Shown: one piece after another, positions 16,868 to 41,019 of the stretch
How the letters are laid out: each line of letters opens with the position of its first letter
How positions within the stretch are numbered: the stretch's first letter is position 1
Assembly (NCBI GenBank): GCA_963850305.1
Contig: CAWKKR010000011.1
Coordinates: forward strand, 192,001-256,000
Length of the DNA: 64,000 nt
Reading direction: 5' to 3'
Origin: an uncultured delta proteobacterium
GTDB lineage: Bacteria > Myxococcota_A > Polyangia > Polyangiales > Polyangiaceae
The notes under the pieces: model-generated
Database searches by the model: none
Seen by the model: only the letters and a program-made list of their open reading frames with translations
Told to the model about the DNA's origin: nothing
Program-made: the position numbers and the translations under genes

Positions 16868-16872
16868 CGCCG

Positions 16873-20063: not shown

Positions 20064-21845
20064 ATGCCGGGACCGAGACTGCTCGCCGGGCGTTACGCCT
20101 ACACGACCCGCATCCGCGGAACGGAGCGGACGATCATCTGGCTCGCTCACGACCGACTCACCGGCGGATCCGTCATCGCGAGCGTGCTGCCGGGACCGAG
20201 GGCCGCCGCGCTCGAAGCCGCAGTTGACGTCGAACACCCGCACGCGGCGACCGTCATCGCCGTCATCGACTCCGTGACGCCCGAGGAGATGCCGGACGTC
20301 GGGCCAATGGAGCCGGATGCGCGCGTCGTGGTCGCCGAGTGGTTCGACGGTGCGAGCTTGCAGCAGCGCCTGGACGCGAGTCCTGCGGCTCCGGAGCAGG
20401 CCGTGGAATGGATCGCCGATGTTCTGGACGCGCTCGCCGTGCTTCACGAGAGGGCGGCCGTGCACGGCGCGATCTCACCGCGTTCCATCGTCGTCGCCCG
20501 GGCGGACCGCGGCACGGTGCCCGTGCTCGCGCATCTCGTCGTGCCGCCGAGCGGCGTGTATTGCTCGCCCGAACGCGTCACCGGCGGCGGTCCTTCGGAG
20601 AGCGATGACGTCTGGGCCGTCGCCGCCACACTTTACACCGCGCTCTCGCGGCGACCGCCCTTTCGGGGCGCGACGCGCACCGAGCTCGCGCGCGCGATCG
20701 TCGCGGGAGCGCCAAAACCCATCGCGCACCTGGATTCCGAGCTGTGGGGCGTGCTCGAGCGGGCGCTCTCGTCCGACCGAAGGAGCCGCTTGCGCAGCGC
20801 CGCGGAGTTTCGAGACCTCCTGCGCAGCTGGCTCGACCGCTCCGGCGTGCCGAGCCTCGGTGACTTCGCGCCGGTGGAAGCGATCCCAGGCCAGAACGAA
20901 CCGCTGCCGAACGTCGGCGATTTGTCACTCGTGGCGGCCCTGGCGCGTCCAGACAGCGCGGAAGCGACGGCGCTCCTCAGCGTTCACCCAGCCTTCAGCC
21001 AGTCGTACCGCCCGCAACGGTCGGAGCCGCCGGTGGCCCCCTCGCCGGAATCTTCGCCCATCAGCGGGCCCTCCGCGCCGTCGTCACCGCCGCGGCCAGT
21101 CGTTACGGACCAAGCTGGTCCGCGTTCTTCGAAACGCCCGCCGCAACGACGGCGGTCGCGTGTGACCTCCGGTGCCTTGCTCGGCTTCGCGGCAGCCGCC
21201 GCGGCGGTCGCCGGACTCCTCATCGGACGATGGCACGCGAGCTCCGGACGCGGTGCTGAACCGTCGCGACCAGCGCCTGCCGCAGCGGCGAGCCTGACAC
21301 CGCCGACGGACGCCCAGGGTGTTCTTCCCCCGGGAGGGACTTCGAGCACGACCGTGCCTGGCGCCGTTCCCAGCGTGGCGGGGAGCACCGGCAAGGAACT
21401 CAACGCCTGCGTCGACGAAACCTTCGAGATGTTCAGACCAACCGCCAACCTCGGTTTTCTGTGCAAGGAGACGGACCTGTGGGGGTCGACACGCCGAATG
21501 GATCTCGAGGTCGGAAAACACGCTGAGGGAGAAGGCCTGGTCACCTGGGCGCACCTGGGTCGGTTCGATCTGGCCGCGACGGCCATTCTTCGCGAGCGTT
21601 GTTGCCCCGACGCGCCGGACTTCACCGCGGCCACGCCGAAGGGCGTCTGCGAGACCCTATCCCCTTCCTTGCACGAGCTCGCCAGGCACCCGTCGGCAGA
21701 AACGACGGACGCCTACGCCGCAAGTGTCGATTGCCTGCTCGGGCGCAAGGTCCGTTACCCGGCGGAATGGTGGGACCGCGTCGGCGCAAAGGCGTCAAGG
21801 ACGTACTTCGATACGTTCCTTTCGCGCGCCGTCCGCGCGAAGTGA
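20064..21845 (+). CDS. Ser/Thr kinase-like pseudokinase with TM and Cys-containing extracytoplasmic domain
   Basis: Kinase-fold remnants (LAGRY, VVAEWFDG, YCSPER, DVWAVAATLY...PPF), but HRDLKP is replaced by HGAISP and there is no Gly loop, VAIK or DFG. Confidence 0.85.
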   Translation: MPGPRLLAGRYAYTTRIRGTERTIIWLAHDRLTGGSVIASVLPGPRAAALEAAVDVEHPHAATVIAVIDSVTPEEMPDVGPMEPDARVVVAEWFDGASLQQRLDASPAAPEQAVEWIADVLDALAVLHERAAVHGAISPRSIVVARADRGTVPVLAHLVVPPSGVYCSPERVTGGGPSESDDVWAVAATLYTALSRRPPFRGATRTELARAIVAGAPKPIAHLDSELWGVLERALSSDRRSRLRSAAEFRDLLRSWLDRSGVPSLGDFAPVEAIPGQNEPLPNVGDLSLVAALARPDSAEATALLSVHPAFSQSYRPQRSEPPVAPSPESSPISGPSAPSSPPRPVVTDQAGPRSSKRPPQRRRSRVTSGALLGFAAAAAAVAGLLIGRWHASSGRGAEPSRPAPAAAASLTPPTDAQGVLPPGGTSSTTVPGAVPSVAGSTGKELNACVDETFEMFRPTANLGFLCKETDLWGSTRRMDLEVGKHAEGEGLVTWAHLGRFDLAATAILRERCCPDAPDFTAATPKGVCETLSPSLHELARHPSAETTDAYAASVDCLLGRKVRYPAEWWDRVGAKASRTYFDTFLSRAVRAK

Positions 21846-21858
21846 CGGCGGCAGCCCG

Positions 21859-22368
21859 TCAGTGCTTGCGCTGCGGTCCGGAGCCGTGGTCGGCGACTCT
21901 CGCCGTGACGGAGACGCGGTCACCGCTGACGTCGAGCGAGAGCGCCGATTCCATCGCGATCCGGGCGAGGCCAAGCATCGTCGTTCCCTCGGGCAGGCGC
22001 TGGAGTCTGTTGAGCGCCCGGGCGAACGCTTCGCGCGCGGAGTCCGTGTGCGTCCGTTGAAATTCGCGCTCCAGGATCGCGACGCGCGAAGGATGCGCCC
22101 TGTTCGTGACGCGAATCTCCATGAAAACGGGGGCATCGCTCGTGTGGATCTCGAATTCGATCTCCGTCGTCGGGTCTCCGTACTTGACGGCATTCTCGAG
22201 CAATTCCTGAACGATCATTCCGGCCCGGTCGGCGGCGCCATTCCTCATCTTCCCGCGCACCCAAACGTCGACGTACTGGCGCAGTGGATCGATGTGAGCC
22301 CACACTGGAGGAAACCGGACGAAGAGCATCAGGGCTTCAGCCCTTCGCTCCGGAGTTGGCGCCATCAT
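21859..22368 (-). CDS. HATPase-fold anti-sigma/switch-kinase-like protein 2
   Basis: IVQELLENAVKYG N-box, MLGLARI (altered G2 box). ATGA-coupled to the upstream STAS-like gene. Confidence 0.8.
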   Translation of the reverse strand: MMAPTPERRAEALMLFVRFPPVWAHIDPLRQYVDVWVRGKMRNGAADRAGMIVQELLENAVKYGDPTTEIEFEIHTSDAPVFMEIRVTNRAHPSRVAILEREFQRTHTDSAREAFARALNRLQRLPEGTTMLGLARIAMESALSLDVSGDRVSVTARVADHGSGPQRKH

Positions 22369-22746
22369 GCTCCCGTGCGCACGACGACGTGCTCCCCGCC
22401 GAGACTTTGAATCGCCGAGAGCGTGGTCGACTGCCACGTGATCTCCGGCTTCGTCAAAAAGTGAAGGACGTAGCGCTTATTCTCGGGCTCGGTTCGGATC
22501 CACTCCACCCAGTCGACCAGCGCGCGAATCGACGAGGAGTTCATGAACCGGAGCTTCGTCGAAATCGACGGTCAGCGCCTTGAGACCGGTCCCGATGACC
22601 GCGAGATGAATTTGCTTCAGGAACGGAGTCACCGTCTCCGAAGGACTGCGCATGGAGATGACGCCCACGAACCGCACCACGTTGTCGAAGACCGTGACTT
22701 CGACGCCATCCAGGACGAGGGGAGCTATCTGGGAGAGCTTGTTCAT
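22365..22746 (-). CDS. STAS/SiaC-like anti-anti-sigma protein (frameshift near 22560)
   Basis: Removing one base gives ...LTVDFTKLRFMNSSSIRALVDWVEWIR...KPEITWQSTTLSAIQSL...RTGA*. FMNSSS corresponds to the phospho-acceptor loop. Confidence 0.8.
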
Positions 22747-23252
22747 GGCGTTCCTCGTGCCGTGATGGCGACCCGTCCCGGGGAGGTTTCGAGCGTGAGT
22801 TCGACCGCGCCCTCGTAGCGTACGCGCGCGAGGCCGAGACCGCTCTGGTCGGCGGGGAGCGAGCCCGCGACACGCAGGGCGCGTTCGTAGGCCGCGCCGG
22901 GAGCCAGGCTGGTGAGCTCGGCGAGAACATGCCGAAGCTTCTCCGCGCGCTCGCTGGAAGTCGTGTTGACGACGCAGACGACGAACGAATCGTCCTTTCT
23001 CTCGATCCGAAGCTCGAGTTCCTTGTCGTCACCGTAGCGAACGGCATTCTCGACGAGCTCGTGCACGATCACGGCGACGCGTTGCCCGAGTCGGTCGTCC
23101 TCGAAGCTTGCGCGCGCGAAGAACCCGCAGAACTCCCGTACCGTATCCAGGTAAAGCCAGATCGGCTTGAACCGAAGCTGCACCAATCGATGCAAAGCTT
23201 CACCCGACGTCCCGCTCGCAGTTCCCAGCATCGAACGACTTGCCCCTGACAT
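22743..23252 (-). CDS. HATPase-fold anti-sigma/switch-kinase-like protein 1
   Basis: IVHELVENAVRYG N-box and SGLGLARVRYE G2 box. Paralogue of 21859-22368. Confidence 0.82.
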   Translation of the reverse strand: MSGASRSMLGTASGTSGEALHRLVQLRFKPIWLYLDTVREFCGFFARASFEDDRLGQRVAVIVHELVENAVRYGDDKELELRIERKDDSFVVCVVNTTSSERAEKLRHVLAELTSLAPGAAYERALRVAGSLPADQSGLGLARVRYEGAVELTLETSPGRVAITARGTP

Positions 23253-23635
23253 GTTTACTCTAGCCCTTTTTTCTCCAAGGACCTCTCGCTTCCGCGCCTT
23301 CGGTCGCGCGCGCCCGGGTGCTCAGCTGCTCGCTCACATGGTGCGCGGCCGGCGCCCTCGAGAGCACGTCCAGCCTCGAAACGATCCTTCGAACTCCAAC
23401 GAGTTGCACGCGCGGCCCCGAAACACCGAAAGCAGTACCGCACAGGGAACTCGGTCGTCCGAGTGAGCAGTGGAACAGACACTCGTTCGGCACGGGGCGC
23501 GGCGAAGAGCGCAGGGCCGGCCGCAGGCGCAGGCGCGATTGACGGGATTGAGGATCGAGACCGAACGGCGAAAAAAAGAGCTCTCGAAAAAATGGCAAAG
23601 GGAGTACCCTTCGAATCTTTCCGAGAGACTGGGGG
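23253..23635. promoter_or_regulatory. Divergent intergenic control region between the partner-switch trio and hypF
   Basis: About 380-bp gap between divergent starts with A-tracts (GAAAAAAAG, GAAAAAATGG) unusual for this GC background. No specific site identified. Confidence 0.45.
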
Positions 23636-25933
23636 ATGAGAACGGCTCGATGCTCCATCGATGTACACGGCCTCGTTCAAGGGGTCGGCTTCAGACCCTT
23701 CGTGCACGGCCTGGCGCGACGGTTCGCGCTCGGCGGCTTCGTCCGCAACGCGGCGTCGGGCGTGCATATCGAGGTGGAAGGCGAACCGTCAGCCATCGCG
23801 CATTTTCTGGACGAACTGCGCGACTCGCCTCCTACGGCGGCGAACGTCGCGCGTGTCGAGAGCCACGCCGAAACCCCCCGCGGCGAGCTCGATTTCCGGA
23901 TCGTTGCGAGCACGCTCCGGCAGCCCGCAGCGGCGCACGTCGCCGCCGACCGCGCCACGTGCGCGGAGTGCCAGCGCGAGCTTTTCGACGCGGAAAACCG
24001 CCGATTCTTGCACCCGTTCATCACGTGCACCACGTGCGGCCCGCGGGCGACCATCATCGAGCAAATGCCCTATGACCGGCCGCGCACGACGATGGCCGGC
24101 TTCGCGATGTGCGACGGCTGCCGGCAAGAATACGAGTCCGTCGCGGACAGACGGTTCCACGCGCAACCCATCGCGTGCCCGCAGTGCGGACCCGAGCTCC
24201 GGATCGTCGGCGTTCGCGCGGAGCCGAACGCGCTTCCCGTCGCCGTCTTCGCGCGGGAGATCTCGGCGGGCCGGATCGGGGCGTTGAAGGGCATCGGCGG
24301 CTTTCATCTGGTCTGCGACGCGGCGAACGACGGCGCCGTCGCCGAACTCCGCCGGCGCAAGCGGCGTGAAGCGAAGCCATTCGCCGTAATGGTCCGCGAC
24401 CTCGACGCGGCCAGGCGCCTTGCCCACATCGGCATGTGCGCCGAACGTTTGCTCTCGTCCGCGGCGAGTCCCATCGTGCTCGTCGAGCGCCGTGAAGACG
24501 CCGTGCTCTCGCGTGAAGTCGCGCCGGGGGTCGACACGGTGGGGCTCTCGTTGCCTTACACGCCGGTGCACCTGCTCCTGTTCCGCGAGCTCGGCGAGCG
24601 CCCGCTCGTCGTCACCAGCGGCAACCGTTCCGACGAACCCATCGCGCACGATGACGCAGAAGCTACGGAGATGCTCGCTGACGTCGCGGACGTATTTCTG
24701 ACTCACGATCGCGACATCCACTGGCCCTGCGACGACTCGGTCGTCCGCGTCGTCGCAGAGAAAGCGCTGCCGATCCGTCGCGCGCGCGGCTACGCGCCGC
24801 TCCCCGTGGGGCTGAGGTTCGAAGTGGCCCAACCGACGCTCGCGCTCGGTGGCCACCAGAAAGCCGTGTTCGCGCTGGGCATCGGAGCCCTCGCATTCCT
24901 CGGCACACATCATGGAGACCTCGACGGAATGCGCGCCTTCACGAGCTGGGCCACGGGGGCGGCGCACCTCGAACGTCTGCTAGGCTCACAGGCCCGACGA
25001 CTCGTTCACGATTTGCATCCCGACTATGCGTCCACGCGTCATGCGCTCGAACGCGCGGCGCCCGGCATCGAGCTCGTCGGGGTGCAGCATCATCACGCCC
25101 ATCTCGCGAGCTGCATGGTGGACAACGAGCTCGATGGCGACGTCATCGGCGTCTGCTTCGACGGCACCGGTCTCGGCACGGACGGCAAGCTCTGGGGCGG
25201 CGAATTCCTCGTCGGCGGTTACCGCGGGTTCGTTCGCGCCGGCCATCTATCCGAGGTCAGGCTCCCCGGAGGCGACCGAGCGGCGCGCGAACCGTTTCGC
25301 GTCGCGCTCTCGCACCTCCGCAATGCAGGACTCGGCGCGGGGGACGTCGGGCTCGATCGCCGGATCGAACGGGGTCTCCTCGCCTCTGTCGATCGTCTGC
25401 TCTCGTCGTCCGCGTGCCCCCCAACCACCAGCATGGGTCGCCTGTTCGACGCGATCGCGTCCATTGCAGGTGTCGTCGATCGCGCGCATCACGACGCCGA
25501 AGCCGGGATGCGACTCGAAGCGCTCGCGGCCCGCTCCGCCGATCGCAAGACGTACTCGGCGAACGTCGACGACCGCGACGCGCTGATCGTTCGGACGGCG
25601 GACATCGTGCATTCGGCGGCGAAGGACGTCGGAGACGGCGCATCGGCGGAAACCATTGCGCGACGTTTCCACACGGCCGTCGTCGACCTGGTCGAGGACG
25701 TATGCACTCGACTCCGTGCGCGGTTCGAGCTCGACCGCGTCGTTCTCTCCGGCGGCGTGTTCGCGAACGCCGTCCTGGTCCGGGAGATCCCCGAGCGGCT
25801 CGGAGCGCGCGGATTTGCGGTGTTCACGCACCATCGAGTGCCGCCGAACGACGGCGGCCTCTGTCTCGGTCAACTCGCGATCGCGGCGCACACGCCGACG
25901 CGAACAACGGCGTCGATCGCGAGGCTCAACTAA
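23636..25933 (+). CDS. hypF: Carbamoyltransferase HypF
   Basis: VQGVGFRPFV, two CxxC-x18-CxxC zinc fingers, KGIGGFHLVCDA, DLHPDY, QHHHAH, PPNDGGLCLGQ. Confidence 0.98.
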   Translation: MRTARCSIDVHGLVQGVGFRPFVHGLARRFALGGFVRNAASGVHIEVEGEPSAIAHFLDELRDSPPTAANVARVESHAETPRGELDFRIVASTLRQPAAAHVAADRATCAECQRELFDAENRRFLHPFITCTTCGPRATIIEQMPYDRPRTTMAGFAMCDGCRQEYESVADRRFHAQPIACPQCGPELRIVGVRAEPNALPVAVFAREISAGRIGALKGIGGFHLVCDAANDGAVAELRRRKRREAKPFAVMVRDLDAARRLAHIGMCAERLLSSAASPIVLVERREDAVLSREVAPGVDTVGLSLPYTPVHLLLFRELGERPLVVTSGNRSDEPIAHDDAEATEMLADVADVFLTHDRDIHWPCDDSVVRVVAEKALPIRRARGYAPLPVGLRFEVAQPTLALGGHQKAVFALGIGALAFLGTHHGDLDGMRAFTSWATGAAHLERLLGSQARRLVHDLHPDYASTRHALERAAPGIELVGVQHHHAHLASCMVDNELDGDVIGVCFDGTGLGTDGKLWGGEFLVGGYRGFVRAGHLSEVRLPGGDRAAREPFRVALSHLRNAGLGAGDVGLDRRIERGLLASVDRLLSSSACPPTTSMGRLFDAIASIAGVVDRAHHDAEAGMRLEALAARSADRKTYSANVDDRDALIVRTADIVHSAAKDVGDGASAETIARRFHTAVVDLVEDVCTRLRARFELDRVVLSGGVFANAVLVREIPERLGARGFAVFTHHRVPPNDGGLCLGQLAIAAHTPTRTTASIARLN

Positions 25934-26178
25934 TGTGCTTGGCAGTCCCGGGGCGAGTGACGGAAATATTCGCGGACGGGGACGTTCACATGGGCAAAGT
26001 CGATTTCGAAGGCGTGTCTCGGAGAATATGCCTCGAATACGTGCCGGAAGCGTCGCCCGGCGACTACGTGCTCGTGCACGTCGGCTTCGCGCTGTCGATC
26101 ATCGACGAGGAGGAGGCAATGCGCGTCTTCGACCTCATCCGTGAACTCGAGCCGGATGCCCTGGAGGCTCCCGAATGA
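25933..26178 (+). CDS. hypC: Hydrogenase assembly chaperone HypC
   Basis: MCLAVPG...[16 protein letters not shown] overlap with hypF. Confidence 0.98.
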
Positions 26179-27305
26179 AGTACCTGGACGAATACCGAGA
26201 CGCGGAAGCGGCCCGCGGCCTCTTGCGAGCGATCGAACGTGAAGCGACGCGCCCATGGGTGATCATGGAAGTGTGCGGGGGGCAGACGCACAGCATCGTG
26301 CGGCATGGCCTTGACGAGCTCTTGCCGGGACGAATCGAGCTCGTTCACGGGCCAGGGTGCCCCGTGTGCGTGACGTCACTCGATCGCATCGATCGCGCGC
26401 ACGCGATCGCCGCGCGCCCGAACGTCATCTTCTGCTCGTTCGGTGACATGCTGCGCGTACCGGGTTCGGATGGCGACCTGTTCCGGCTCAAGTCCAGGGG
26501 CGCGGACATTCGTGTGGTCTATTCACCGCTCGATGCCCTCAAGATTGCGGCCGAGAACCCGACGCGTGAGGTCGTCTTCTTCGCGATCGGGTTCGAAACG
26601 ACCGCGCCCGCGAACGCCATGGCCGTCTCACTCGCGCGCCGCCGCGGCATCCGCAACTTCAGCATGCTCGTCTCGCATGTCCTGGTGCCTCCCGCGATCT
26701 CCGCCATCCTGACGGCCGAGGACAATCGGGTTCAGGGCTTCCTGGGTCCTGGACACGTCTGCGTCGTCATGGGGACGTCGGAGTACGAGCCGCTGGCGGC
26801 GCGCTTCTCCGTGCCCATCGTCGTTACGGGTTTCGAGCCGGTGGACATGCTCGCAGGGATCCTGCGCGTCGTTCGCGCGCTCGAACACGGCGAGGCCGTG
26901 GTCGAGAATCAGTACGCGCGCTCGGTGCGCGAGCAGGGGAATCCCAGGGCACGCGAGATCCTCGGGGAGGTATTCGACGTGTGCGACCAGAACTGGCGCG
27001 GCGTCGGCACCATCGCCGCGAGCGGCTACCGGCTGCGGCGCGAATACGCCGCGTTCGACGCGGAGCGACGCTTCGACGTCGACCACGTCGCACCCAAGGA
27101 GCCCGAGGAGTGTATCAGCGGGGAGATCCTCCGCGGCGTGAAGAAGCCGCTCGATTGTCCCGCGTTCGGCATCCGTTGCACGCCGGACCGCCCGCTCGGC
27201 GCGACGATGGTGTCGTCCGAAGGCGCGTGCGCCGCCTACCACGCTTACGGGCGCACGACGGCGAAGCGACGGCTACCGCTCGCGGAGGGGGCACGGCTCG
27301 AATGA
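26175..27305 (+). CDS. hypD: Hydrogenase maturation protein HypD
   Basis: [39 protein letters not shown]. Confidence 0.98.
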
Positions 27306-28390
27306 CGGAGAGCGTCCCGTTCACGTCCCCGAGCGAGTTCGGTGCGGCCCTGACGTCCTTGTCCTGTGCCACGCCGCCCGCCTACGAAGGGATCGTCCTC
27401 GGTCACGGGAGCGGCGGACGGCTGAGCCATCAGCTCCTGACGCGGGTCATCTTGCCCGCGCTCGGGAAGGACGAACGCTTCGCGACGGAGGACCAGGCCG
27501 TGGTGCCGATGCCCGCGTCGGGGCGGCTCGCGATGACGACCGACGCATTCGTCGTGCGCCCGCTCTTCTTTCCGGGCGGCAACATCGGGAGCCTCGCGGT
27601 GCACGGCACGGTGAACGACCTCGCCGTCGGCGGTGCGCGCCCGCTGTACATGACCGCGTCCTTCATTCTGGAAGAAGGGCTCGAGCTCGAGCTCCTGCGG
27701 AGAATTTTGCACTCGATGCGGCGCGCGTGCGAGGCAGCGCCCATCGCGCTGATCACCGGGGACACCAAGGTCGTCGATCGCGGAAAGGGCGACGGGATTT
27801 TCGTGACGACGACGGGTGTCGGGGTCGTCCCGGACGGAATATCGCTCTCGGCGACGGCAGCGCGACCCGGTGATTCCGTGCTCGTGTCCGGCACGCTCGG
27901 CGACCACGGGATCGCCATTCTGGCCGCGCGGGACGGCATCGAACTCGAGACGACTCTGGAGAGTGACAGTGCGCCCCTCGCCGACCTCGTCCAGGCGATC
28001 CTCGCGACAGGAGCGGCGGTTCGCTGCATGCGCGACCCCACGCGGGGTGGCCTGTCGAGCGCACTGAACGAGATTGCCGCAGCGTCGAACGTCGGCATCA
28101 CACTCGACGAAGGCCGGATCCCTCTTCGGTCCGAGGTCTGCGGTGCGTGCGAGCTTCTCGGACTCGATCCTCTCTACGTCGCGAACGAGGGCAAGCTCGT
28201 CGCCATCGTCGCTCCGGAGTCCGCGCACGCCGTTCTCGACGCGATGCGCCGCCACCCGCACGGCCGCGACGCGGCGATCATCGGACGCGTCGTCGCGGAT
28301 CACCCGCAGATGGTCACCATGAAATCACGACTCGGGGGCGAGCGCATCGTCGCGATGCTCGCCGGCGAGCAACTTCCGCGCATCTGCTGA
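27302..28390 (+). CDS. hypE: Carbamoyl dehydratase HypE
   Basis: [39 protein letters not shown]-terminal PRIC. Confidence 0.98.
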
Positions 28391-28401
28391 AAGGCGAGCA
28401 C

Positions 28402-29453
<1,052 letters not shown>

Positions 29454-29457
<4 letters not shown>

Positions 29458-31226
29458 CCGCTGAATCCGGATCGCTCGTCGACATGTCGTGGGATCCGAT
29501 CACGCGGATCGTCGGCAGCCTCGGGATCCACACGAAGATCGATTTCGGACAACGACGGGTGGCGGACTGCTGGAGCACGTCGTCGATCTTTCGAGGGTAC
29601 AGCGTGTTCATGCAGGGCAAGGACCCGCGCGACTCGCACTTCATCACGAGCCGCATCTGCGGCATCTGCGGCGACAATCACGCAACATGCTCGGTTTACG
29701 CGCAGAACATGGCGTACGGCGTGAAGCCGCCGCACCTCGCGGAGTGGCTCGTGAACCTCGGGGAAGCCGCCGAGTACATGTTCGACCACAACCTGTTTCA
29801 GGACAACCTCGTCGGAGTCGACTTCTCGGAGAAAGTGGTCCGCGCGACGAACCCCGGCGTCTTCGAGCTAGCCGAAAAGACGGAGGCGCCGCACGCGGCC
29901 GATCACGGACACCGGACGATTGCCGGCATCATGCGCGCGCTGAATCCCTTCTCCGGAGAGCTGTATCGCGAAGCGCTCCATATGAGCCGCCTGACGCGCG
30001 AAATGTTCTGCTTGATGGAGGGACGCCATGTGCACCCCTCTACTCTCTACCCCGGCGGAATCGGCACCGTCCCGACCGTGCAGCTTCTGACGGATTACCT
30101 GACGCGCCTCATGAAGTACGTGGAGTACCTGAAGCGCATCGTGCCGCTGCACGACGATCTCTTCGACTTCTTCTATGAAGCGTTACCGGGGTACGAGCAG
30201 GTCGGCAATCGGCGCATCTTGCTGGGGTGCTGGGGCTCGTTTCAGAACCCCGAGACTTGCGACTTTCAGTACAAGACGATGTCGAGCTGGGGGAACGACA
30301 TGTTCGTCACGCCCGGCATCGTCGTGGACGGCAAGCTCGTGACGACGGACCTCGTAGAGATCAACCTCGGAATCCGTATCTTGCTGGGCAGCTCCTTCTA
30401 CGAGGACTGGGAGGGCACGGGCGAGCTCTTCGTGAAAGAGGATCCGCTCGGCAACCCCATCGACGCGCGCCACCCGTGGAACCAAACGACCGTCCCTCGA
30501 CCCCAGAAGCGGGATCTCGGTGGCAAGTACACCTGGGTCATGTCTCCGCGGTGGCTCGATCGCAGAACCGGCGATCATCTCGCGCTCGATACCGGCGGCG
30601 GGCCGCTCGCGCGGCTCTGGGCCACGGCGCTCGCCGGCAAGGTCGACATCGGGTACGTGAAAGCGACTGGACAAAGCGTGCAGATCCGGCTGCCGAAGAC
30701 GCAATCCCGTCCAGAAATGGAGCTCGACTGGCGCATCCCGGAGTTCAGCAACACCCTCGAGCGTAACCGCGCGCGCTCCTACTTTCAGGCCTATGCGGCG
30801 GCAGCGGCCTTCTTCTTTCTCGAGCGCGCGTTCGCGGAGATACACGCCGGTCGCACACGGACGTTCACGCCGTTCGAAGTTCCGGACGAGGCGATCGGTT
30901 GCGGCTTTCACGAAGCGGTGCGCGGCGTCCTGTCGCATCACATGGTCATCCGCGACAAGAAGATCGCAAACTACCACCCTTACCCGCCGACCCCCTGGAA
31001 CGCGAGCCCGCGCGATTCGTTCGGCACCCGCGGTCCTTACGAGGACGCGGTCACGGGGATGCCGCTCTTCGAGGAAAACGGCAAGGACGACTTCAAGGGC
31101 ATCGACATCATGCGCACGGTCCGGAGCTTCGATCCGTGTCTTCCCTGCGGCGTTCACATGTATCTGGGCGAGGGCAAGGAGCTCCTGGTCCGTCACTCGC
31201 CGACGTTCGGGGTGACGGTGAAATGA
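29454..31226 (+). CDS. hhyL: Group 1h [NiFe]-hydrogenase large subunit
   Basis: WDPITRIVGSLG; L1 TSRICGICGDNH and L2 RSFDPCLPCGVH are the group 1h/5 signatures; C-terminal extension present. Confidence 0.97.
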
Positions 31227-31765
31227 CGTCGTCGAACGAGTTTTCCGGGCGCATGCAGCGACTCGAAGAGCTGCTGACCGAAGTGGAGCTCGCCGCGGAC
31301 GAACGTTCCCTTACGCCGGTGCGCGCTCTCGTGAGGACGCTGATGGACGTGCACTGCGGAGCCCTCGAGCAGATCCTCGGGACTCTCGGCGACGCACGGA
31401 CGGCGGACGGACGCGACCTGAAGTCGGTCCTGCTCGAAGACCCGGCGGTGTCGAGCCTGCTCCTCATGCACGACCTCCACCCGTCGAGCCTGACGGACCG
31501 TGCGCGGCGCGCCCTCGACGAAGCCCACTCCCTCGCCGGAGCTCACGCAACGGCCGAGCTGGTGCGCATTGACGGCGAACGCGTGTTCGTCCGCATTCGC
31601 GAGGAGAAGCGGGGCGCCGCGGCCCTGCTCCGCAAAGCCGTCGAGCGAACGCTCGGCGAGCGGACCCCGGACGCCCTGTTCGAGATCGAGGGCGGAGACG
31701 CGACGGACGGCGGCTTCGTGCCGGTTTCGCGCCTTCACTCGCGGTCGCGAGGTGCCGCGCCGTGA
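31223..31765 (+). CDS. NifU-like accessory protein of group 1h loci (CxxC missing)
   Basis: R...LEELL...LV..LM..H..AL..I and LLEDPAVSSLLLMHDLHP match the gene normally following hhyL. Confidence 0.75.
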   Translation: MTSSNEFSGRMQRLEELLTEVELAADERSLTPVRALVRTLMDVHCGALEQILGTLGDARTADGRDLKSVLLEDPAVSSLLLMHDLHPSSLTDRARRALDEAHSLAGAHATAELVRIDGERVFVRIREEKRGAAALLRKAVERTLGERTPDALFEIEGGDATDGGFVPVSRLHSRSRGAAP

Positions 31766-32358
31766 CCGCGACGCGCTTCTACTCCGCGCTCGGCGCTCTG
31801 CGTCGATTCACGGCCCCGCCTCGAACCGACGAACGGTGTGACCTGTGCGGCGCTCGCGTCGCGGAAGAACACGAGCATCTTCTCGATCCCTCGAGTCGGG
31901 GATTGTCGTGTGCATGCGTCGCCTGTGCCACGTTGTTCTCCGGCGACGGCGCGACTCATCGCCGCCGTGTCGTGTCGCGTGCGGTGCCGCTCGACGACGT
32001 GCGCCTCGACGAGGGAGACTTTCGCGACCTGGGCGTTCCCGTCCGCTTCGCGTTCCTTTACCCGAGCCAGATCCACGATTGCGTCTTCGCGACGTACCCG
32101 AACACCGCGGGCGCGACCGAGTCCGTGCTCGCGAGCGAGACCTGGGCCGCGCTCGTCCGCGCCCATCCGTCGCTCGCCGTCATCGAGGCGGACCTCGAAG
32201 GGCTCCTCGTGTGTCCGTCCGGGGGCGCCGTGAAGGCCTATCGCGCGTCGATCGACGTATGCCATCGCATGATCGGTGCGGCTCGGGGGCGTCGTCCGGG
32301 TGACGTCGAATGGGTCGAGCGAGAGTTCGCGAAGCTCTCCGAGGGCCGCCATGGTTGA
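31762..32358 (+). CDS. Conserved group 1h hydrogenase-associated protein (DUF5947-like)
   Basis: ERCDLC...HEHL...CACVACATLF, PVRFAF, YPNTAGATES. Confidence 0.85.
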   Translation: MTATRFYSALGALRRFTAPPRTDERCDLCGARVAEEHEHLLDPSSRGLSCACVACATLFSGDGATHRRRVVSRAVPLDDVRLDEGDFRDLGVPVRFAFLYPSQIHDCVFATYPNTAGATESVLASETWAALVRAHPSLAVIEADLEGLLVCPSGGAVKAYRASIDVCHRMIGAARGRRPGDVEWVEREFAKLSEGRHG

Positions 32359-32980
32359 CTTTCGCGCGGTCGCGGCGACCGCCATGCCCTTCTCGGCGAG
32401 TCCGCGAATCGAGCTCACGATCGAGGCGGCCTCTGCCGAAACGGTCCGGAGTCTGCTCCTGAAGTGCGTCGTCCGGATCGAAGCAGGGCGGCGGCTTCAC
32501 GACGAGCGTGAGCGCTCTCGTCTCGAGGAGGTCTTCGGGCGCGCGGACGTCTGGGCACGCTCGCCGAAGAGCCTGGTGTGGACGAACACGACGGCCGTCG
32601 TCGGGGGCTTCGACCGCGTGACCACGTTCCCGCTCGAGCTCCCGTGCAGCTTCGATTTCTCGGCTGCCGCCGCGCGGTACCTGCACGGACTCGAGTCGGG
32701 AGAAGTGCCTGTCGTCGTGTTCTTCAGCGGGACCGCGTTCGTCGAGGGTCCTTCGGGACTCACGGCGGTTCAAATTCCGCGGGATCGCGAGGCGGCCTTC
32801 GGAGTTCCGGTAGCGCTGTTCCGCAAGGCGATGGACGAGCACTTCGCGGGCGCGGCCCTCGTGTCCGTGCGCGGCGACGTCTTCGAGCGCCTGAACGATT
32901 ACCGGCGCACCCAGGGGCTGCGAAATGCCGATGACGCGATCGAGCGACTCCTCGTCATCGCCGCCCGAGGTGCGGCGTGA
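32351..32980 (+). CDS. Conserved group 1h hydrogenase-associated protein (DUF6084-like)
   Basis: RIEAGRR....E..RL..VFG...W, LPCSFDF..AAARYLHGL..GEVP...FSGT. Confidence 0.85.
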   Translation: MVDFRAVAATAMPFSASPRIELTIEAASAETVRSLLLKCVVRIEAGRRLHDERERSRLEEVFGRADVWARSPKSLVWTNTTAVVGGFDRVTTFPLELPCSFDFSAAAARYLHGLESGEVPVVVFFSGTAFVEGPSGLTAVQIPRDREAAFGVPVALFRKAMDEHFAGAALVSVRGDVFERLNDYRRTQGLRNADDAIERLLVIAARGAA

Positions 32981-34143
32981 GCTTCGGGGCGGCAGAAGCG
33001 ATCGCGCGGGCCCTGCTGTTCGAGGGGTACGTCCTCTATCCGTATCGCGCCTCGAGCCTGAAGAACCGGCAGCGTTGGTCGATGGGCACGCTGTACCCGA
33101 AGCAGTTCTGCACCACCGCGAACGAGAATGACCACAGCTCCATGCAGACGGAGTGCCTGGTCGCCGGAGTGAACCCTCGGGTGCGAGTGTCCGTTCGCTA
33201 CCTGCAGTCGCTGTCCCGGCAAGCGACCGACAGCGCCGCCTCGCACGAAGCCGTCGAACGGCGCGTCGAACCGGAGGAACTCTCGCTCGTCGAGCTGGCT
33301 TCGCAGCCGCGCGAACTCAGGGCGGAGGTTCCCGAGGACGTCGTGGGCGACACTGGCGCTCCGCTCCTCCAGAAGGCCCTGGCCATACGGGTGGTCGTCG
33401 CCAGCGAACGCCTGGACGAAGCGTTGTTCAAGCTCTCGGTCACGGTGGAAAACGAGACCGAAAGCACGGATATCCTGCAAGCTCGGACCGCGGCGCAGCT
33501 CGAGTCCCTGCTCTCCGCGCACACGCTGCTCGCGTGCCGGGACGGTGAGTTCATCTCCCTCCTGGAACCACCGGACGAGTTCGCGTCCCACGTCGAGGGT
33601 TGCCGGAACGTTCGCGTATGGCCGGTCCTCGTGGGCGCACAGAAGCGCGGCGACACGCTGCTCTCGTCGCCCATCATTCTGTACGATTGCCCGAGCATCG
33701 CCGCCGAGAGCCCCGGAGATCTCTTCGACGCGACGGAGATCGACGAGATCCTGTCACTCCGCATTCTGACCCTGACGCCCGACGAACGCCGCGAGGCCGT
33801 CGCCACGAACGCCCGGGCCCGTGAGCTCGTGGAACGGACGGAATCGCTCGGGGAGGATGAGCTTCTCGCCCTGCACGGCATCTGGCGACGCGGGTCCACG
33901 CCAGCGCCTCGCCCGTTCGAGACGGGCGATCACGTCGTGCTGCGCCCGGCTCGCGGAGGGGACGTGCTCGATCTCGCCCTGGCCGGCGAGGCCGCGACGA
34001 TCACGGGCATCGAGGAGGATCTCGAAGGCCGCACGCACTACCTGGTCACGGTCGACGCGGACCCGGGCAAAGATCTGGGCGAGCTGGGACAACACGGACA
34101 TCGATTCTTCTTCGCTGGAGAAGAGCTGGAGAGGGTCGGTTGA
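32977..34143 (+). CDS. Conserved group 1h hydrogenase-associated protein
   Basis: IARALLFEGYVLYPYRASSLKNRQRW, LSSPIILYD.P.IA.ESPGDLFDATEIDEILSLR, HRFFF. Confidence 0.85.
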   Translation: MSFGAAEAIARALLFEGYVLYPYRASSLKNRQRWSMGTLYPKQFCTTANENDHSSMQTECLVAGVNPRVRVSVRYLQSLSRQATDSAASHEAVERRVEPEELSLVELASQPRELRAEVPEDVVGDTGAPLLQKALAIRVVVASERLDEALFKLSVTVENETESTDILQARTAAQLESLLSAHTLLACRDGEFISLLEPPDEFASHVEGCRNVRVWPVLVGAQKRGDTLLSSPIILYDCPSIAAESPGDLFDATEIDEILSLRILTLTPDERREAVATNARARELVERTESLGEDELLALHGIWRRGSTPAPRPFETGDHVVLRPARGGDVLDLALAGEAATITGIEEDLEGRTHYLVTVDADPGKDLGELGQHGHRFFFAGEELERVG

Positions 34144-34667
34144 CGGGCCCGCGCATCCTGGTCGCCGGCATCGGCAATGTCTTCCTCGGGGACGATGGCT
34201 TCGGCGTGGCCGTCGCGGAGCGCCTCGCCCGTCGTTCGTTACCGGACGGCGTGGTCGTCATGGACGCCGGGATCCGCGGCCTCGATCTGACGTACGCGCT
34301 CATGAGCGGATACGACGTGGCCATCCTCGTGGACACCACACGCCGAGGGCAGCCCCCCGGAACGCTGTACGTCATCGAGCCCGACGCTTCCGGGGACGTC
34401 GAACCGACGCCGCTGGACGCACACGGAATGGACCCGGGCCACGTGCTCGCGTTTCTGCGCGCATCAGGAGCCGAGCTCCGGCGGCTCCGGGTCGTCGGCT
34501 GTGAGCCGGAGACGTTCGGCTCGGACGACGACCCTTGTCTCGGTCTGAGTGCGACCGTGACGGCGGCACTCGAACCCGCGATCGAGCTCGTCGAGTCAAT
34601 CGTCCGCGACGAGCTTTCCCAATGCGCGCGCGAAGCCACCGGAGCCGAGGAGCGCGCCGATGCATGA
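34140..34667 (+). CDS. Hydrogenase maturation endopeptidase (HupD/HyaD family)
   Basis: LVAGIGNVFLGDDGFG, AILVD, DAHGMDP, VVGCEP. Confidence 0.95.
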   Translation: MTGPRILVAGIGNVFLGDDGFGVAVAERLARRSLPDGVVVMDAGIRGLDLTYALMSGYDVAILVDTTRRGQPPGTLYVIEPDASGDVEPTPLDAHGMDPGHVLAFLRASGAELRRLRVVGCEPETFGSDDDPCLGLSATVTAALEPAIELVESIVRDELSQCAREATGAEERADA

Positions 34668-34989
34668 ACTCGGCGTGGCGCTGAACATCGTGGACATCGT
34701 CGTGGAACGTTCGCGCGGCGCTCGTGTGAGACGAGTCACCCTCGAGGTCGGCGCGCTCACCGCTGTGTTGCCGGACGCGCTCAGGTTCTGCTTCAATCTC
34801 GCGACCGAGGGAACCCCGCTCAGCGGCGCGACTCTCGAGATCCACGAACTGCCGGGCCGCGCGAGGTGCAGAGCGTGCACGACCGAGTTCGAGCTCGCAC
34901 GCCCGTTTGGTCACTGCACTTGCGGCGGGACGGATTTGGACTGGCTGTCGGGAGAAGAACTCTGCGTTTCCGAGATGGAGGTGGAATGA
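34660..34989 (+). CDS. hypA: Nickel metallochaperone HypA
   Basis: MHE N-terminus, CRAC and HCTCG zinc site, SGEEL. Confidence 0.96.
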   Translation: MHELGVALNIVDIVVERSRGARVRRVTLEVGALTAVLPDALRFCFNLATEGTPLSGATLEIHELPGRARCRACTTEFELARPFGHCTCGGTDLDWLSGEELCVSEMEVE

Positions 34990-35834
34990 TGTGCGGCATC
35001 TGCGGTTGCAATGAGGCCGACCTCGACGGTCGTCAGGACGGCGCGAGCGCGCACGCCCACGCGGCGACGCATGACCATCCACATCTTCACGAGCATCACG
35101 CGCCTCACTCCCACCCCCACACGCACGCCCCTGCGGACGAGACCCACGCCGCTCGCCGGGTTCGCCTGGAGGAAGATCTTCTCCGGAAGAACGCCCTGCT
35201 CGCCGAACGAAACCGCGGGTGGTTCTCCGGTCGCCGCGCGTTCGCCGTCAACTTCGTCAGCTCGCCGGGTTCCGGGAAGACCACGCTCCTCGAACAAACC
35301 GTCCGAAGGGCGGCGTTCGGCGCCAGCATTCGCGTGATCCAGGGCGACCAGGCCACCGATCGCGACGCGGAGCGAGTGCGGCGAGCGGGCGCACGCGCCG
35401 TCCAGATCAACACCGGTACCGGATGTCACCTCGACGCGGCGATGGTGTCCCGCGGGGCGCTCGAGCTCGATCCGGATCCGAATTCGCTCGTCGCGATCGA
35501 GAACGTCGGCAACCTCGTGTGCCCCGCGCTCTTCGATCTCGGGGAGCACGCGCGCATCGCCTTGATCTCGGTCACGGAGGGCGCCGACAAGCCACTCAAA
35601 TACCCTTACCTGTTTCGCGGAAGCCAGCTGATCGTAGTCAACAAAACGGACCTCCTGCCTTACGTCGACTTCGACATCGGCGAGTGCACGGCGGCCCTCC
35701 GTCAGGTGAACCCCGATGCGTCGCTGGTCACCATGTCAGCCAAGACGGGGGAAGGTCTCGACGGCTTCTTCGGCTGGATCATACGGCGGGCCGCGCTCGC
35801 GTCCATCGAGCTCGCGCGGGGAGCCGAGCCGTGA
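34986..35834 (+). CDS. hypB: Nickel-insertion GTPase HypB
   Basis: MCGICGC, His-rich linker, SSPGSGKTTL, GCHLDA, ENVGNLVCPA, NKTD. Confidence 0.97.
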   Translation: MMCGICGCNEADLDGRQDGASAHAHAATHDHPHLHEHHAPHSHPHTHAPADETHAARRVRLEEDLLRKNALLAERNRGWFSGRRAFAVNFVSSPGSGKTTLLEQTVRRAAFGASIRVIQGDQATDRDAERVRRAGARAVQINTGTGCHLDAAMVSRGALELDPDPNSLVAIENVGNLVCPALFDLGEHARIALISVTEGADKPLKYPYLFRGSQLIVVNKTDLLPYVDFDIGECTAALRQVNPDASLVTMSAKTGEGLDGFFGWIIRRAALASIELARGAEP

Positions 35835-37195
35835 CCGGTCCACAGAAGTCGCCCGTGCATCACGTCGAGACGGCCGACGACACCAATCTCGTGGACATTG
35901 CCGGCGCCGAGGCGTTTCTCACGAGCCTATCGTCCGCGCTGTTTCCCGCGGGGACGCCGGGCCAAGATCTTCTCACGTGGGCCGACGCGGTCGGACCGGC
36001 GACGGCCGGACCTTCGGGCGCGCGCATGGAGGATCGACTCAAGTCGGCCGAGAAGCGATTCACGACGCTGGTCGAGCAGATCCCGGCGGTCACGTTCATG
36101 GCCGTCCTGGGGGAAGGAGAGAACGAGGTCTACGTCAGCCCGCACATCGAACAGATGCTCGGCTACTCGCAGGAAGAGTGGTTGTCCGATCCGTTTCTCT
36201 GGTACACGCGCCTTCACCCGGACGATCGGCTGCTCTGGAACGAGGAGTTCACGCGCGGGTGCCACCACGGCGGCCCCTTCCGCGCGGAGTGTCGGTTCGT
36301 CGCTCGCGACGGCCGCATCGTGTGGGTCCACGGCGAGGCGCGCCTCGTCAAGGACGAGCGAGGACGGCCGCAGTTTCTCCAGGGCGTCGCCTTCGACATC
36401 ACCGAGAGCAAGCGGGCGCAGGAGATCATGCTGAAGGATGCCGTGAAGAGCGCCAAGATCGAGGAAGAGCTCGAGATCGCGCGGCGCGTCCAGACATTAC
36501 TCTTGCCGCAGAACCCCGTCCTCGACGGTCTCGAGATCGCCGCGGCGATGTTTCCCGCGGACGACGTCGGCGGAGACTACTACGACGTCCGCCCGACCCT
36601 CGATGGCGGCTGGATCACCATCGGCGACGTCTCGGGCCACGGGCTCGACGCCGGACTCATCATGCTCATGGTGCAGAGCGCGATCTCCGCCATCACCACG
36701 TCGCGCGGCAGCGTTTCCCCGAGTGAACTCGTCACCCTCGTGAACGAAGTCCTGTACGAGAACATCTCGCGTCGACTCGCGCGGAGCGACTACGTCACGT
36801 TCTCGGCGCTGCGCTACACGCGCCACGGCAAGGTCGTCTTTGCCGGCGCACATCAGGACATCCTCATTCGCCGCGCCGACACTAATCGCGTCGAACGCGT
36901 GCGCACCGCGGGACCCTGGGTCGGCATCCGCCGTCATATCCGCTCCATAGTGGACGACGCCTCCTTCAACCTCCATCACGGGGACGTTATGGTCCTCTTC
37001 ACCGACGGCGTCCTCGAAGCCGCGAATCGAGACGGCCAGCTCTTCGACGTCGACCGACTGTGTGCTGCGGTCGAAGAAGCCGGCGACATCAGACCCGCCG
37101 AACTCCGCGACCAGGTCGTCGACAAGGTCCAGCGCTGGACGCACCAGCAAGAAGACGACATCACGCTGATCGTCGCGAGGTACTCGAATCGGTGA
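35831..37195 (+). CDS. PAS-PAC sensor fused to SpoIIE/RsbU-type PP2C phosphatase
   Basis: PAS (YVSPHIEQMLGYSQEEW...LHPDD, DGRIVWVH, DITE), coiled coil ELEIARRVQ..LLP, VGGDYYD, IGDVSGHG, FTDGV.EA, EDDITL. GTGA overlap with the hypB stop. Confidence 0.95.
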   Translation: MTGPQKSPVHHVETADDTNLVDIAGAEAFLTSLSSALFPAGTPGQDLLTWADAVGPATAGPSGARMEDRLKSAEKRFTTLVEQIPAVTFMAVLGEGENEVYVSPHIEQMLGYSQEEWLSDPFLWYTRLHPDDRLLWNEEFTRGCHHGGPFRAECRFVARDGRIVWVHGEARLVKDERGRPQFLQGVAFDITESKRAQEIMLKDAVKSAKIEEELEIARRVQTLLLPQNPVLDGLEIAAAMFPADDVGGDYYDVRPTLDGGWITIGDVSGHGLDAGLIMLMVQSAISAITTSRGSVSPSELVTLVNEVLYENISRRLARSDYVTFSALRYTRHGKVVFAGAHQDILIRRADTNRVERVRTAGPWVGIRRHIRSIVDDASFNLHHGDVMVLFTDGVLEAANRDGQLFDVDRLCAAVEEAGDIRPAELRDQVVDKVQRWTHQQEDDITLIVARYSNR

Positions 37196-38464: not shown

Positions 38465-39046
38465 TCACACGGCAAGGACGGACTCGAGCTTCGCCTTCAG
38501 ATCCTGGTCTCGGTGAAACCCGCGTTCGGTGATCCGCGCGAGGTGCGCTCGCACGACGTCGAGATCCAGGTCGGGAACGAACTGGATCAACCGCTGCGCG
38601 TCCAATCGATCCTGCAAGCGTGTTTCGCTCATGCTGAGGATCTTCATGGCAAGGAGCTCCTCGGCACTCGCAACGGGGACCCTCCCCGCACCCTGCATGT
38701 CGACGATGGACGCCGCGGCGATGATCTCGCTCTCGATGCCCGAACTCGCAAACAGGAGGTCGATCTTCACACCGTGCGGCGAGAGCAACCGAATCGTCGC
38801 GAGACGGTGCCGCGTCTCGTGCTCGACGCTTGCGACCGGCGCGTATCCTGCGGCGCGAAGCTCGTACACCAAGGCTTCAGCGTCCGCGTCGTCGATCACG
38901 CCGACGGCGAGATCGATATCCCGAGTGAAGCGGATCTCGGCGCGGACCGAGACCGCCAGACCGCCGACCAGTGCAAACGCTCTCCGCCTGTCCGTCAACT
39001 CCTTGCAGATCGCGCGAACCGCGAACTCTGGCACTGGCTCAGTCAT
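38465..39046 (-). CDS. Nucleotidyltransferase-fold protein (AbiEii-like), putative toxin
   Basis: FALVGGLAV...RFTRDIDL (GG...DxD), IDLL, ELLAMK...R.QDRLD. Confidence 0.8.
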   Translation of the reverse strand: MTEPVPEFAVRAICKELTDRRRAFALVGGLAVSVRAEIRFTRDIDLAVGVIDDADAEALVYELRAAGYAPVASVEHETRHRLATIRLLSPHGVKIDLLFASSGIESEIIAAASIVDMQGAGRVPVASAEELLAMKILSMSETRLQDRLDAQRLIQFVPDLDLDVVRAHLARITERGFHRDQDLKAKLESVLAV

Positions 39047-39230: not shown

Positions 39231-39255
39231 GCGGTCATCGTACCATAGCGCCGCC

Positions 39256-41018: not shown

Positions 41019-41019
41019 G

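Follow-up and report, generated by a model that had tools for sequence, protein, structure and literature searches.

An operon for a group 1h [NiFe]-hydrogenase in an uncultured myxobacterium is bracketed by the genes of a putative phospho-switch. The operon lies in a stretch of 64,000 nucleotides, called the window throughout (G000:C11:192001–256000), of a metagenome-assembled genome (MAG) of 6.26 Mb in 11 contigs with an estimated completeness of 94.8%, whose named relatives are Polyangiaceae MAGs. On one side and in divergent orientation stands a trio made up of a HATPase-like gene (HATP1), a STAS-like gene and a second HATPase-like gene (HATP2); on the other, as the last gene of the operon itself, stands a gene for a phosphatase with a PAS and a PP2C domain (PAS-PP2C). 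We propose, with a probability of roughly 60%, that the trio and the terminal PAS-PP2C form one serine-phosphorylation partner switch of the SiaABC/RsbUVW type, drawn from slr1658/slr1659-like families and genetically wired to the group 1h operon. That these genes make up one switch is well supported by comparison across relatives, and control of H2 oxidation by the locus is plausible on our analysis. The genes are as follows.

21859–22368, minus strand: HATP2, slr1658-like GHKL (HATPase-like) protein of 169 residues; HATPase_c 26.9 bits, HATPase_c_2 27.1 bits, slr1658_superfam 41.2 bits; ATG overlaps the STAS stop (ATGA)
22365–22746, minus strand: slr1659-like STAS/SiaC-fold gene with a one-base frameshift near 22560, read from open reading frames (ORFs) whose halves abut on intact orthologues; slr1659_superfam 26 bits (C-half)
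22743–23252, minus strand: HATP1, slr1658-like GHKL protein of 169 residues; slr1658_superfam 48.9 bits; SpoIIAB/SiaB/RsbW folds
23253–23635, no strand: divergent intergenic region between HATP1 and hypF, 383 bp, from the sequence
23636–25933, plus strand: hypF carbamoyltransferase; TIGR00143 703.8 bits
25933–28390, plus strand: hypC (25933–26178), hypD (26175–27305) and hypE (27302–28390); overlapping junctions, orthologues in synteny
28402–29457, plus strand: hhyS, hydrogenase small subunit; TIGR00391 hydA 133.5 bits (below the cut-off of 179.5), 81–88% identical orthologues in synteny
29454–31226, plus strand: hhyL, group 1h [NiFe]-hydrogenase large subunit; HofG (5aa5_C) 1104 bits
31223–34143, plus strand: accessory genes orf180 (31223–31765), DUF5947 (31762–32358; Pfam 1.9e-40), DUF6084 (32351–32980; Pfam 7.2e-57) and orf388 (32977–34143); synteny conserved
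34140–35834, plus strand: maturation protease (34140–34667; TIGR00072 119 bits), hypA (34660–34989) and hypB (34986–35834; TIGR00073 265.4 bits), with their junctions
35831–37195, plus strand: PAS-PP2C phosphatase of 454 residues; SpoIIE 1.3e-38, PAS_3 2.3e-20; GTG start overlaps the hypB stop

Fourteen genes run on the plus strand from hypF (23636) to the end of PAS-PP2C (37195), in the order hypF, hypC, hypD, hypE, hhyS, hhyL, four accessory genes (those for DUF5947 and DUF6084 among them), the maturation protease gene, hypA, hypB and PAS-PP2C; 12 of the 13 operon junctions inspected are overlaps of 1, 4 or 8 nucleotides, and the remaining one is an 11-nucleotide gap. The closest solved relative of the hhyL product is HofG of an actinobacterial-type hydrogenase, with all other chains at 172 bits or less, and this match and the DUF5947 and DUF6084 genes place the operon among the clusters for group 1h (formerly group 5) [NiFe]-hydrogenases. 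PAS-PP2C starts at a GTG within the GTGA at the hypB stop, as a sequence-only reading of this DNA had claimed, and its assignment to the PAS-PP2C type is borne out by the PAS_3 match and by a full-length match to the SpoIIE Pfam family (133.4 bits, positions 6–191 of 192). GGDYYD, GDVSGHG, TDG and DDIT are visible in its translation; we take these to be the metal-binding acidic motifs of PP2C enzymes, and with them intact the protein appears, from its sequence, to be the PP2C-type phosphatase that a partner switch would need. A set of cofactor-binding Cys/His residues in the PAS domain was considered and rejected, the C-H-H of the window copy not being conserved among 14 PAS sequences. On the minus strand, beyond a gap of 383 bp from the divergent hypF (about 380 bp in the sequence-only reading), lie HATP1, the STAS-like gene and HATP2, joined by ATGA overlaps at 22746–22743 and 22368–22365. 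The earlier description of an ATGA-coupled HATPase/STAS/HATPase trio stands for both overlaps and for the two HATPase genes, which are intact, but not for the STAS-like gene, which is split by the frameshift taken up below; the remaining 16 genes of the locus are intact.

The gene set is inherited together with the operon. Six of the seven genomes of the same genus (G000, the window genome itself, with G001, G002, G003, G005 and G006) have hhyL and PAS-PP2C on one contig with the trio or, at the least, its STAS gene; in G002 a run of N occupies the expected place of HATP1, HATP2 was not detected, and only the STAS gene of the trio is seen. The seventh, G004 (99% complete), has none of hhyL, PAS-PP2C and the trio. 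The divergent order of trio and hypF also occurs in G041, a Sandaracinaceae MAG in which PAS-PP2C follows hypB on the same contig, and in G042, with the trio and PAS-PP2C on separate contigs. In a second order all genes point the same way and their junctions overlap, as HATPase-STAS-(Hpt-HATPase kinase)-hypF...hypB-PAS-PP2C; its Hpt-HATPase kinase gene was seen in the sequences of G348 and of the metagenome contig L088, whereas in L094 hypF directly follows the STAS gene, both of these contigs ending within hypD with the operon ends beyond them. G043 shows the second order as well, with 1.6 kb between STAS and hypF lying outside our reading. In a third order, found in L101, HATPase-STAS is convergent on a PAS-PP2C gene that follows hypB.

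Full-length orthologues of PAS-PP2C (53–71% identity) follow a hyp/hup gene at the operon end in 12 of 12 cases (hypB in 11, a protease gene in one), and all 11 genomes with these orthologues hold the HATPase/STAS pair, which is adjacent to the operon in 10. The synteny around hhyL that the sequence-only reading had put forward as a check is complete for the position of the phosphatase and for the presence of the pair, and falls one genome short for adjacency. Among metagenome contigs that carry a close HATP1 orthologue (at least 44% identity) and at least 500 nucleotides upstream of it, nine of 11 have a hyp gene there; the 11 were drawn from the 38 loci of the metagenome scan, the others being too short upstream or distant relatives. 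In the remaining two, a cytochrome c peroxidase-like gene (L069) or nothing recognized (L078) lies upstream. A hybrid HisKA-HATPase-REC protein with a C-terminal slr1658-like domain, 42–45% identical to HATP1, is encoded directly after PAS-PP2C in G001, G002 and G006 (L017:1808–3541, minus strand; also L018, L021 and L022) and on another contig in G003. The module was also sought in actinobacterial hhy loci and rejected there: in the phylum of G436 (Lentzea), an slr1659-like gene was found in none of the 251 sampled genomes at E 1e-6 or better, though hhyL is present in 37 (a count that includes the unpublished G485), with a query that finds the independent positive G348 at 9e-38. With hhyL in these 37 genomes and an slr1659-like gene in none of them, the link seems to be particular to the present lineage of myxobacteria.

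A natural control is offered by four sister hhy operons (G011, G024, G037 and G045), in whose last gene the same PAS domain (52–69% identical) is joined to a histidine kinase and not to a PP2C domain. The pair is absent in three of the four: no slr1659-like gene turned up in the whole genomes of G011 and G037 at E 1e-6, and G024 has no HATP1-like gene, while G045 holds a trio beside a different PP2C gene. The pair is therefore present with PAS-PP2C and mostly absent with the PAS-kinase, which means that it goes with the phosphatase and not with the hydrogenase as such; judging by gene content, this would be expected if the STAS protein is the substrate of the PP2C. Since the same PAS is carried either by a PP2C, with the switch proteins present, or by a histidine kinase, with them mostly absent, the comparison points to the PAS as the hydrogenase-linked sensor. 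In the G011 operon with its terminal PAS-histidine kinase, we also observed that the hhyL match (L029, 14656–15933) covers residues 164–590 only and holds an internal TGA, so that the gene is possibly decayed. These operons bear on a reading in which the neighborhood has no function and the trio is an unrelated signaling cassette inherited with the hydrogenase island. The island is patchy, with hhyL in 4 of the 401 genomes sampled from the phylum (G000 included, the other three all with PAS-PP2C), and could carry passengers, and distant relatives of the module occur without a hydrogenase. We nevertheless hold this reading to be highly improbable, as the pair stands beside the operon in three gene orders that differ from one another, as it is lacking from operons that end in a kinase gene and not a PP2C gene, and as PAS-PP2C is translationally coupled to hypB.

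Away from hydrogenases the pair keeps company with other phosphatases. Distant trios or pairs stand beside NIT-HAMP-PP2C or other PP2C genes with no hydrogenase in G026, G013, L036, L043, L044, L047, L049 and L053, and metagenome pairs or trios with a PP2C gene and no hydrogenase were found in L084, L087, L095, L097, L098 and L100. A scan of genome contigs returned 21 loci, of which 12 were analyzed, five being duplicates of genomes already examined and four being short N-box-only matches (Halonotius, Lentzea) that were left out; a PP2C gene lies within 10 kb in six of the 12, at the end of an adjacent hydrogenase operon in three and nowhere in reach in three. The sequence-only reading had held that trio and PP2C occurring independently of hhyL would count against it, and this proved half true: remote versions of the module exist where hhyL is missing, while the PAS-PP2C orthologue group was never seen apart from it (12 cases). 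Two-component parts also recur near the module, in the form of Hpt-HATPase kinases, REC domains and the HisKA-HATPase-REC-slr1658-like hybrid. A Spirochaetales MAG (L048, 7393–10840) holds an alternating array of slr1659-like and slr1658-like genes (three STAS-like and four HATPase-like) downstream of a PAS histidine kinase.

Gene fusions join the same parts. Three of the 150 listed STAS-family representatives are HATPase-STAS fusions (P0106, P0151 and P0202), and in P0335, a protein of 616 residues, the first 450 form a PAS-PP2C that is 57% identical to that of the window, and the slr1659-like profile aligns with the final 100 (hhalign probability 99%, E 2.5e-18). An apparent HypB-PAS-PP2C fusion, P0311, was rejected as such and counted only as adjacency, its linker resembling out-of-frame read-through. 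A search for longer fused relatives of HATP1 returned none, yet it missed the hybrid kinases of G001, G002 and G006 and was therefore insensitive.

The STAS-like gene is intact in a single frame in 16 of 16 aligned orthologues and homologues, and forms one frame of 125–128 codons in G001, G006, G003, G005, G002, G045 (L036), G042, G044 and G041. The intact orthologues match slr1659_superfam with 38.4–42.7 bits over nearly the full profile length (cut-off 100) and give weak matches to anti-sigma antagonist models, with Pfam STAS at 16–17 bits, under its gathering cut-off, and Pfam SiaC at 13.3 bits (E 0.066; cut-off 24.5). For a profile of 16 STAS-like proteins the best solved sequence is SpoIIAA (E 0.0035), with FMNSS aligned on FMDSS, which we take to be the position of the phosphoserine motif. 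The family is large, with 1595 cluster representatives at E 0.001 or better, and the serine of N-S-S is mostly kept in it (93 NSS and 10 SSS among 150 representatives, by a crude pattern). The 16 intact relatives thus have the form expected of the phosphoprotein of a partner switch, a small STAS-fold protein with a conserved Ser/Thr where the helix behind the central strand starts; the window copy is split. In SiaC, according to PMC8457831, the phosphorylated threonine lies in N67-T68-S69, likewise at a helix start, and this N-T-S phosphosite matches N-S-S here.

Structure models place both proteins among known switch partners. The best folds for HATP1 (model with a predicted local distance difference test score, pLDDT, of 86) are SpoIIAB (1th8_A, in complex with SpoIIAA), SiaB (6kko_A, with SiaC; template modeling (TM) score 0.62), RsbW (6m36) and UsfX, and those for the STAS-like protein (pLDDT 92) are the anti-sigma antagonist 4qtp, SiaC (TM-score 0.65–0.66) and SpoIIAA, such that the matches of the two are both chains of the same co-crystals. 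A complex was predicted from the intact HATP1 and STAS proteins of G001, each with its alignment, plus ATP and Mg, and reached an interface score (ipSAE) of 0.88, compared with 0.01 for the best of three controls; the ipSAE mark used is reached by 116 of 157 solved complexes and by 2 of 215 mismatched pairs, a calibration that our own alignments and the ligands make rough. The runs share at least 97% of their contacts, with a partner pLDDT of at least 90, and the tightest predicted contacts join Ser71 of the STAS N-S-S motif to Glu54 of the HATP1 N-box, Leu128/Gly129 of G2 and Arg132. The predicted interface is thus a confident one centered on the serine, and on this model HATP1 may bind STAS with its acceptor serine at the nucleotide site; SpoIIAB–SpoIIAA and SiaB–SiaC are already solved, so the result may be memory and shows likeness only.

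Several observations weigh against the proposed switch, the first of them in the HATPases themselves. GHKL kinases carry an N-box, a G1 box (DxGxG) and a G2 box, and the G1 Asp of other GHKL proteins contacts adenine. HATP1 has the N-box HELVENAVRYG, Asn96 at the position of the G1 Asp and QSGLGLAR as G2; HATP2 has the N-box ELLENAVKYG, an Asn at the G1 position and an altered but conserved G2 (TTMLGLAR; MLGLAR). Alignments of orthologues show the N-box (ELxENAxxY) and a G2-like GLGL retained across HATPase relatives, and the DxGxG of G1 replaced by an invariant Asn with no glycines, as V-x-N-T-T in HATP1 and V-x-N-[KR]-A in HATP2. As a GHKL serine kinase the family therefore falls short at G1, with N-box and G2 present and a fold still like SpoIIAB, SiaB and RsbW, and because Asn replaces the G1 Asp, ATP-dependent kinase activity is not assured. 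Family scores are low as well. Both HATPases give weak matches to Pfam HATPase_c, HATPase_c_2 and DUF6272 around the gathering score, and SiaB_fam_kinase (NF038262) reaches 21.1 bits against a cut-off of 85. The sequence-only reading had been reminded of cyanobacterial Slr1658/Slr1659 pairs, and slr1658_superfam and slr1659_superfam are indeed the best families for the trio (48.9 and 41.2 bits for HATP1 and HATP2, 26 bits for the C-half of the STAS-like gene), all three below the curated cut-off of 100, so that every slr1658/slr1659, SiaB and SiaC match stays under its curated threshold.

The invariant Asn and the altered G2 of HATP2 would be explained if slr1658-like proteins were nucleotide-independent binding partners (pseudokinases), with the STAS protein regulated by binding only and the PP2C acting on another phosphoprotein, such as the hydrogenase or a maturation protein. 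This alternative would also accommodate G044, which keeps PAS-PP2C with hypB and the pair elsewhere, and the Hpt-HATPase kinase that stands where HATP2 would be expected in the one-direction order (G348 and L088). We regard it as distinctly unlikely, given that the conserved N-box Glu/Asn and G2 GLGL argue for a retained nucleotide site, that most family members retain the serine of N-S-S, that PP2C genes stand beside the pair in many unrelated contexts, and that a PAS-PP2C-STAS fusion exists.

The STAS-like gene of the window is frameshifted in the assembly, a second point against a working switch in this strain. The frame that starts at the ATGA (22746) encodes 62 native residues to LTVDF and is then out of frame until a stop at 22477, which places the N-half between 22746 and about 22561; the motif LRFMNSSSIRAL...WQ lies in a different frame, open only from 22571 to 22365. 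The sequence-only reading had taken motif and ATGA start as parts of one coupled gene, and this was incorrect, the start and the quoted FMNSSS motif being in different frames. On the intact orthologues among the 16 aligned relatives the two halves adjoin without a missing residue (LTVD[I/L/F]-TKLRFMNSSS), and because they abut exactly, one extra base is indicated near 22560. Programmed frameshifting was rejected, as 16 of 16 relatives read the gene in one frame. Public reads do not cover the site: neither X1, the sole run to contain any of the stretch (17% of words), nor two further runs from its study reach 22,477–22,574. The frameshift is either a one-base mis-assembly or a recent inactivation in this strain. 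In G043, a MAG with long contigs, hypF (L046, 12444–14668) and hypB (L056, 790–1399) are each split across two frames, by frameshifts either of the assembly or of the genes, and such breaks do occur in data of this kind.

Further points on the same side come from the comparison. The genomes compared are related MAGs and not independent samples. The linkage is not absolute, since G044 has PAS-PP2C after hypB and the pair on another contig; three close HATP1 orthologues (L069, L078 and L036) have no hyp gene upstream; and a second hhy operon of G001 (L026, G001:C100), with an hhyL 72% identical and another gene order, has neither trio nor PAS-PP2C. The gene for the slr1658-like hybrid kinase is missing from the window. 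The sequence-only reading had all parts of one switch flanking the hydrogenase and possibly controlling trace-H2 oxidation. Co-occurrence, sister operons, other contexts, fusions, folds and the predicted complex speak for the first part, that of one switch; against the second, that of control, count the failure to find an output partner, the noncanonical G1 box and the frameshifted STAS gene.

As the sequence-only reading had noted, no sigma factor or other output gene is visible: we found no sigma factor, cyclase or DNA-binding gene adjoining the trio or the operon, and no output partner of the switch within the window, and both findings weigh against the proposed wiring. The divergent gap gave no sigma-70-like promoter match, and a MAFFT alignment of six intergenic regions (the window and five relatives) held no conserved block outside the coding ends, on which ground a conserved operator in the gap was rejected. 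With no output gene for the hydrogenase in sight, the same switch might instead take the hydrogenase as its input, PAS-PP2C reporting hydrogenase expression or H2-derived redox and the switch controlling unlinked genes of dormancy, development or stress. The dose of PAS-PP2C, as the last coupled gene, would follow operon expression; the same PAS drives a histidine kinase in the sister operons, which fits a sensor that reports outward; and in G001, G002 and G006 the gene after PAS-PP2C encodes a hybrid kinase that ends in an slr1658-like domain. We consider the input reading unlikely: where trio and hypF diverge they have a promoter region in common, and in the one-direction order the trio is co-transcribed with hypF, so that autoregulation fits at least as well, and we found no target for the input reading either.

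The H2-sensing circuit of Cupriavidus and Rhodobacter, HoxBC-HoxJ-HoxA, works through a hydrogenase-kinase complex, and the sequence-only reading had declared it absent. Two more [NiFe] large-subunit loci occur in the window genome, at C4:561696–562835 (L105) and C5:31758–32849 (L106), with Fer4_22, NAD_binding_1 and Oxidored_q6 as neighbors, a context that suggests the soluble NAD(P)-linked type and not a sensor hydrogenase with its kinase. No sensor hydrogenase was seen; HoxJ and HoxA themselves were not searched for. The C5 copy (L106) has an internal TGA, and a second hypF lies alongside. The locus described here has in common with HoxBC-HoxJ-HoxA that a signaling system is encoded with an uptake hydrogenase, and differs from it in lacking a sensor hydrogenase and in the proposed Ser phosphorylation and partner switching in place of a hydrogenase-kinase complex.

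Among known partner switches, SiaABC(D) of Pseudomonas aeruginosa (PP2C SiaA, kinase SiaB, phosphoprotein SiaC) is likewise built from three parts, namely a PP2C with a sensor, a small kinase-like protein of the GHKL type and a phosphoprotein, also small, that is related to STAS. Its SiaB–SiaC co-crystal 6kko gives the best TM-scores for both window-type models, and output by a change of partner, without a sigma factor, is a further feature that we count as common. Differences are also plain: sequence matches lie far below cut-offs (SiaB_fam_kinase 21 versus 85 bits; Pfam SiaC E 0.066), there are two HATPase paralogues here and not one, there is no diguanylate cyclase, and the phosphatase carries a cytoplasmic PAS in place of a transmembrane-HAMP arrangement and has its gene at a distance of 13 kb, in last place in the hydrogenase operon. 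With the Bacillus systems SpoIIE/SpoIIAA/SpoIIAB and RsbU/RsbV/RsbW the locus shares a PP2C of the SpoIIE Pfam family (1.3e-38), SpoIIAA as the best solved hit of the STAS profile with the serine motif aligned, and SpoIIAB–SpoIIAA as the top fold match of HATP1, whereas a sigma factor gene is missing from the locus, the G1 DxGxG is absent (invariant Asn) and Pfam STAS remains at 16–17 bits, below its cut-off. The NCBIfam families slr1658/slr1659, named for a cyanobacterial pair, are the best matches for both HATPases and the STAS-like protein, though with scores of 49, 41 and 38–43 bits under the cut-off of 100, with the pair expanded to a trio, and with a link to a hydrogenase. As far as the literature matches listed show, slr1658/slr1659 are mentioned only in passing and we found no experimental study of them; full-text searches returned nothing that links hhyL with partner switching or with PP2C, and none of the matches listed combines hydrogenase with switch terms. 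The arrangement of phospho-switch genes around a hydrogenase operon is thus kept in relatives and was not found in print.

Other features of the window lie outside the switch and the operon. Convergent on HATP2 is a plus-strand gene (20064–21845) for a protein of 593 residues with a partial Pkinase match (1e-10, profile positions 69–252 only) and a long low-complexity tail, an adjacency that is not kept in relatives. Downstream of PAS-PP2C, just past a region with no recognizable gene, a minus-strand ORF of 193 residues (38465–39046) matches AbiEii, a type IV toxin-antitoxin nucleotidyltransferase (Pfam, 1.6e-11). ORFs of 1465 residues (14977–19374, plus strand) and 832 residues (39149–41647, minus strand) have no Pfam match at E 0.001, and the region 40001–44000 shows a raised guanine plus cytosine content (0.74) and a strong AT skew of 0.27–0.31.

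On the proposed reading of one switch wired to the hydrogenase operon, we infer the phosphorylation itself, which of the HATPases is the kinase, the signal of the PAS domain and the output on hydrogenase expression or activity, as follows. HATP1 would bind the STAS-like protein and phosphorylate the first serine of N-S-S. PAS-PP2C, whose gene comes last in the operon and is translationally coupled to it, would for that reason be produced in parallel with the hydrogenase, and would take the phosphate off STAS whenever the state of its PAS domain is suitable. STAS without the phosphate would then switch partner, most likely to HATP2, and so pass the signal on; a third slr1658-like domain, the one that ends the hybrid histidine kinase, may be the partner in some relatives. 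A bolder version, in which the PAS is a dedicated sensor of hydrogenase activity or redox state, PP2C, slr1659-like and slr1658-like proteins close a feedback loop that sets hydrogenase level or activity, and the slr1658-like proteins with Asn in G1 form a distinct class of serine kinases with altered nucleotide handling, is conjectural and probably not right as a whole; if true, the feedback loop would be the first case of a regulator dedicated to an oxidizer of atmospheric H2.

Soil bacteria with group 1h hydrogenases can live on H2 from the atmosphere, for which these enzymes are a major sink, and to our knowledge it is poorly understood how cells decide to make and use them. The locus is a concrete candidate for such a regulator, a compact phospho-switch with its phosphatase built into the operon, and it gives the widespread and unstudied slr1658/slr1659 families a defined physiological context.

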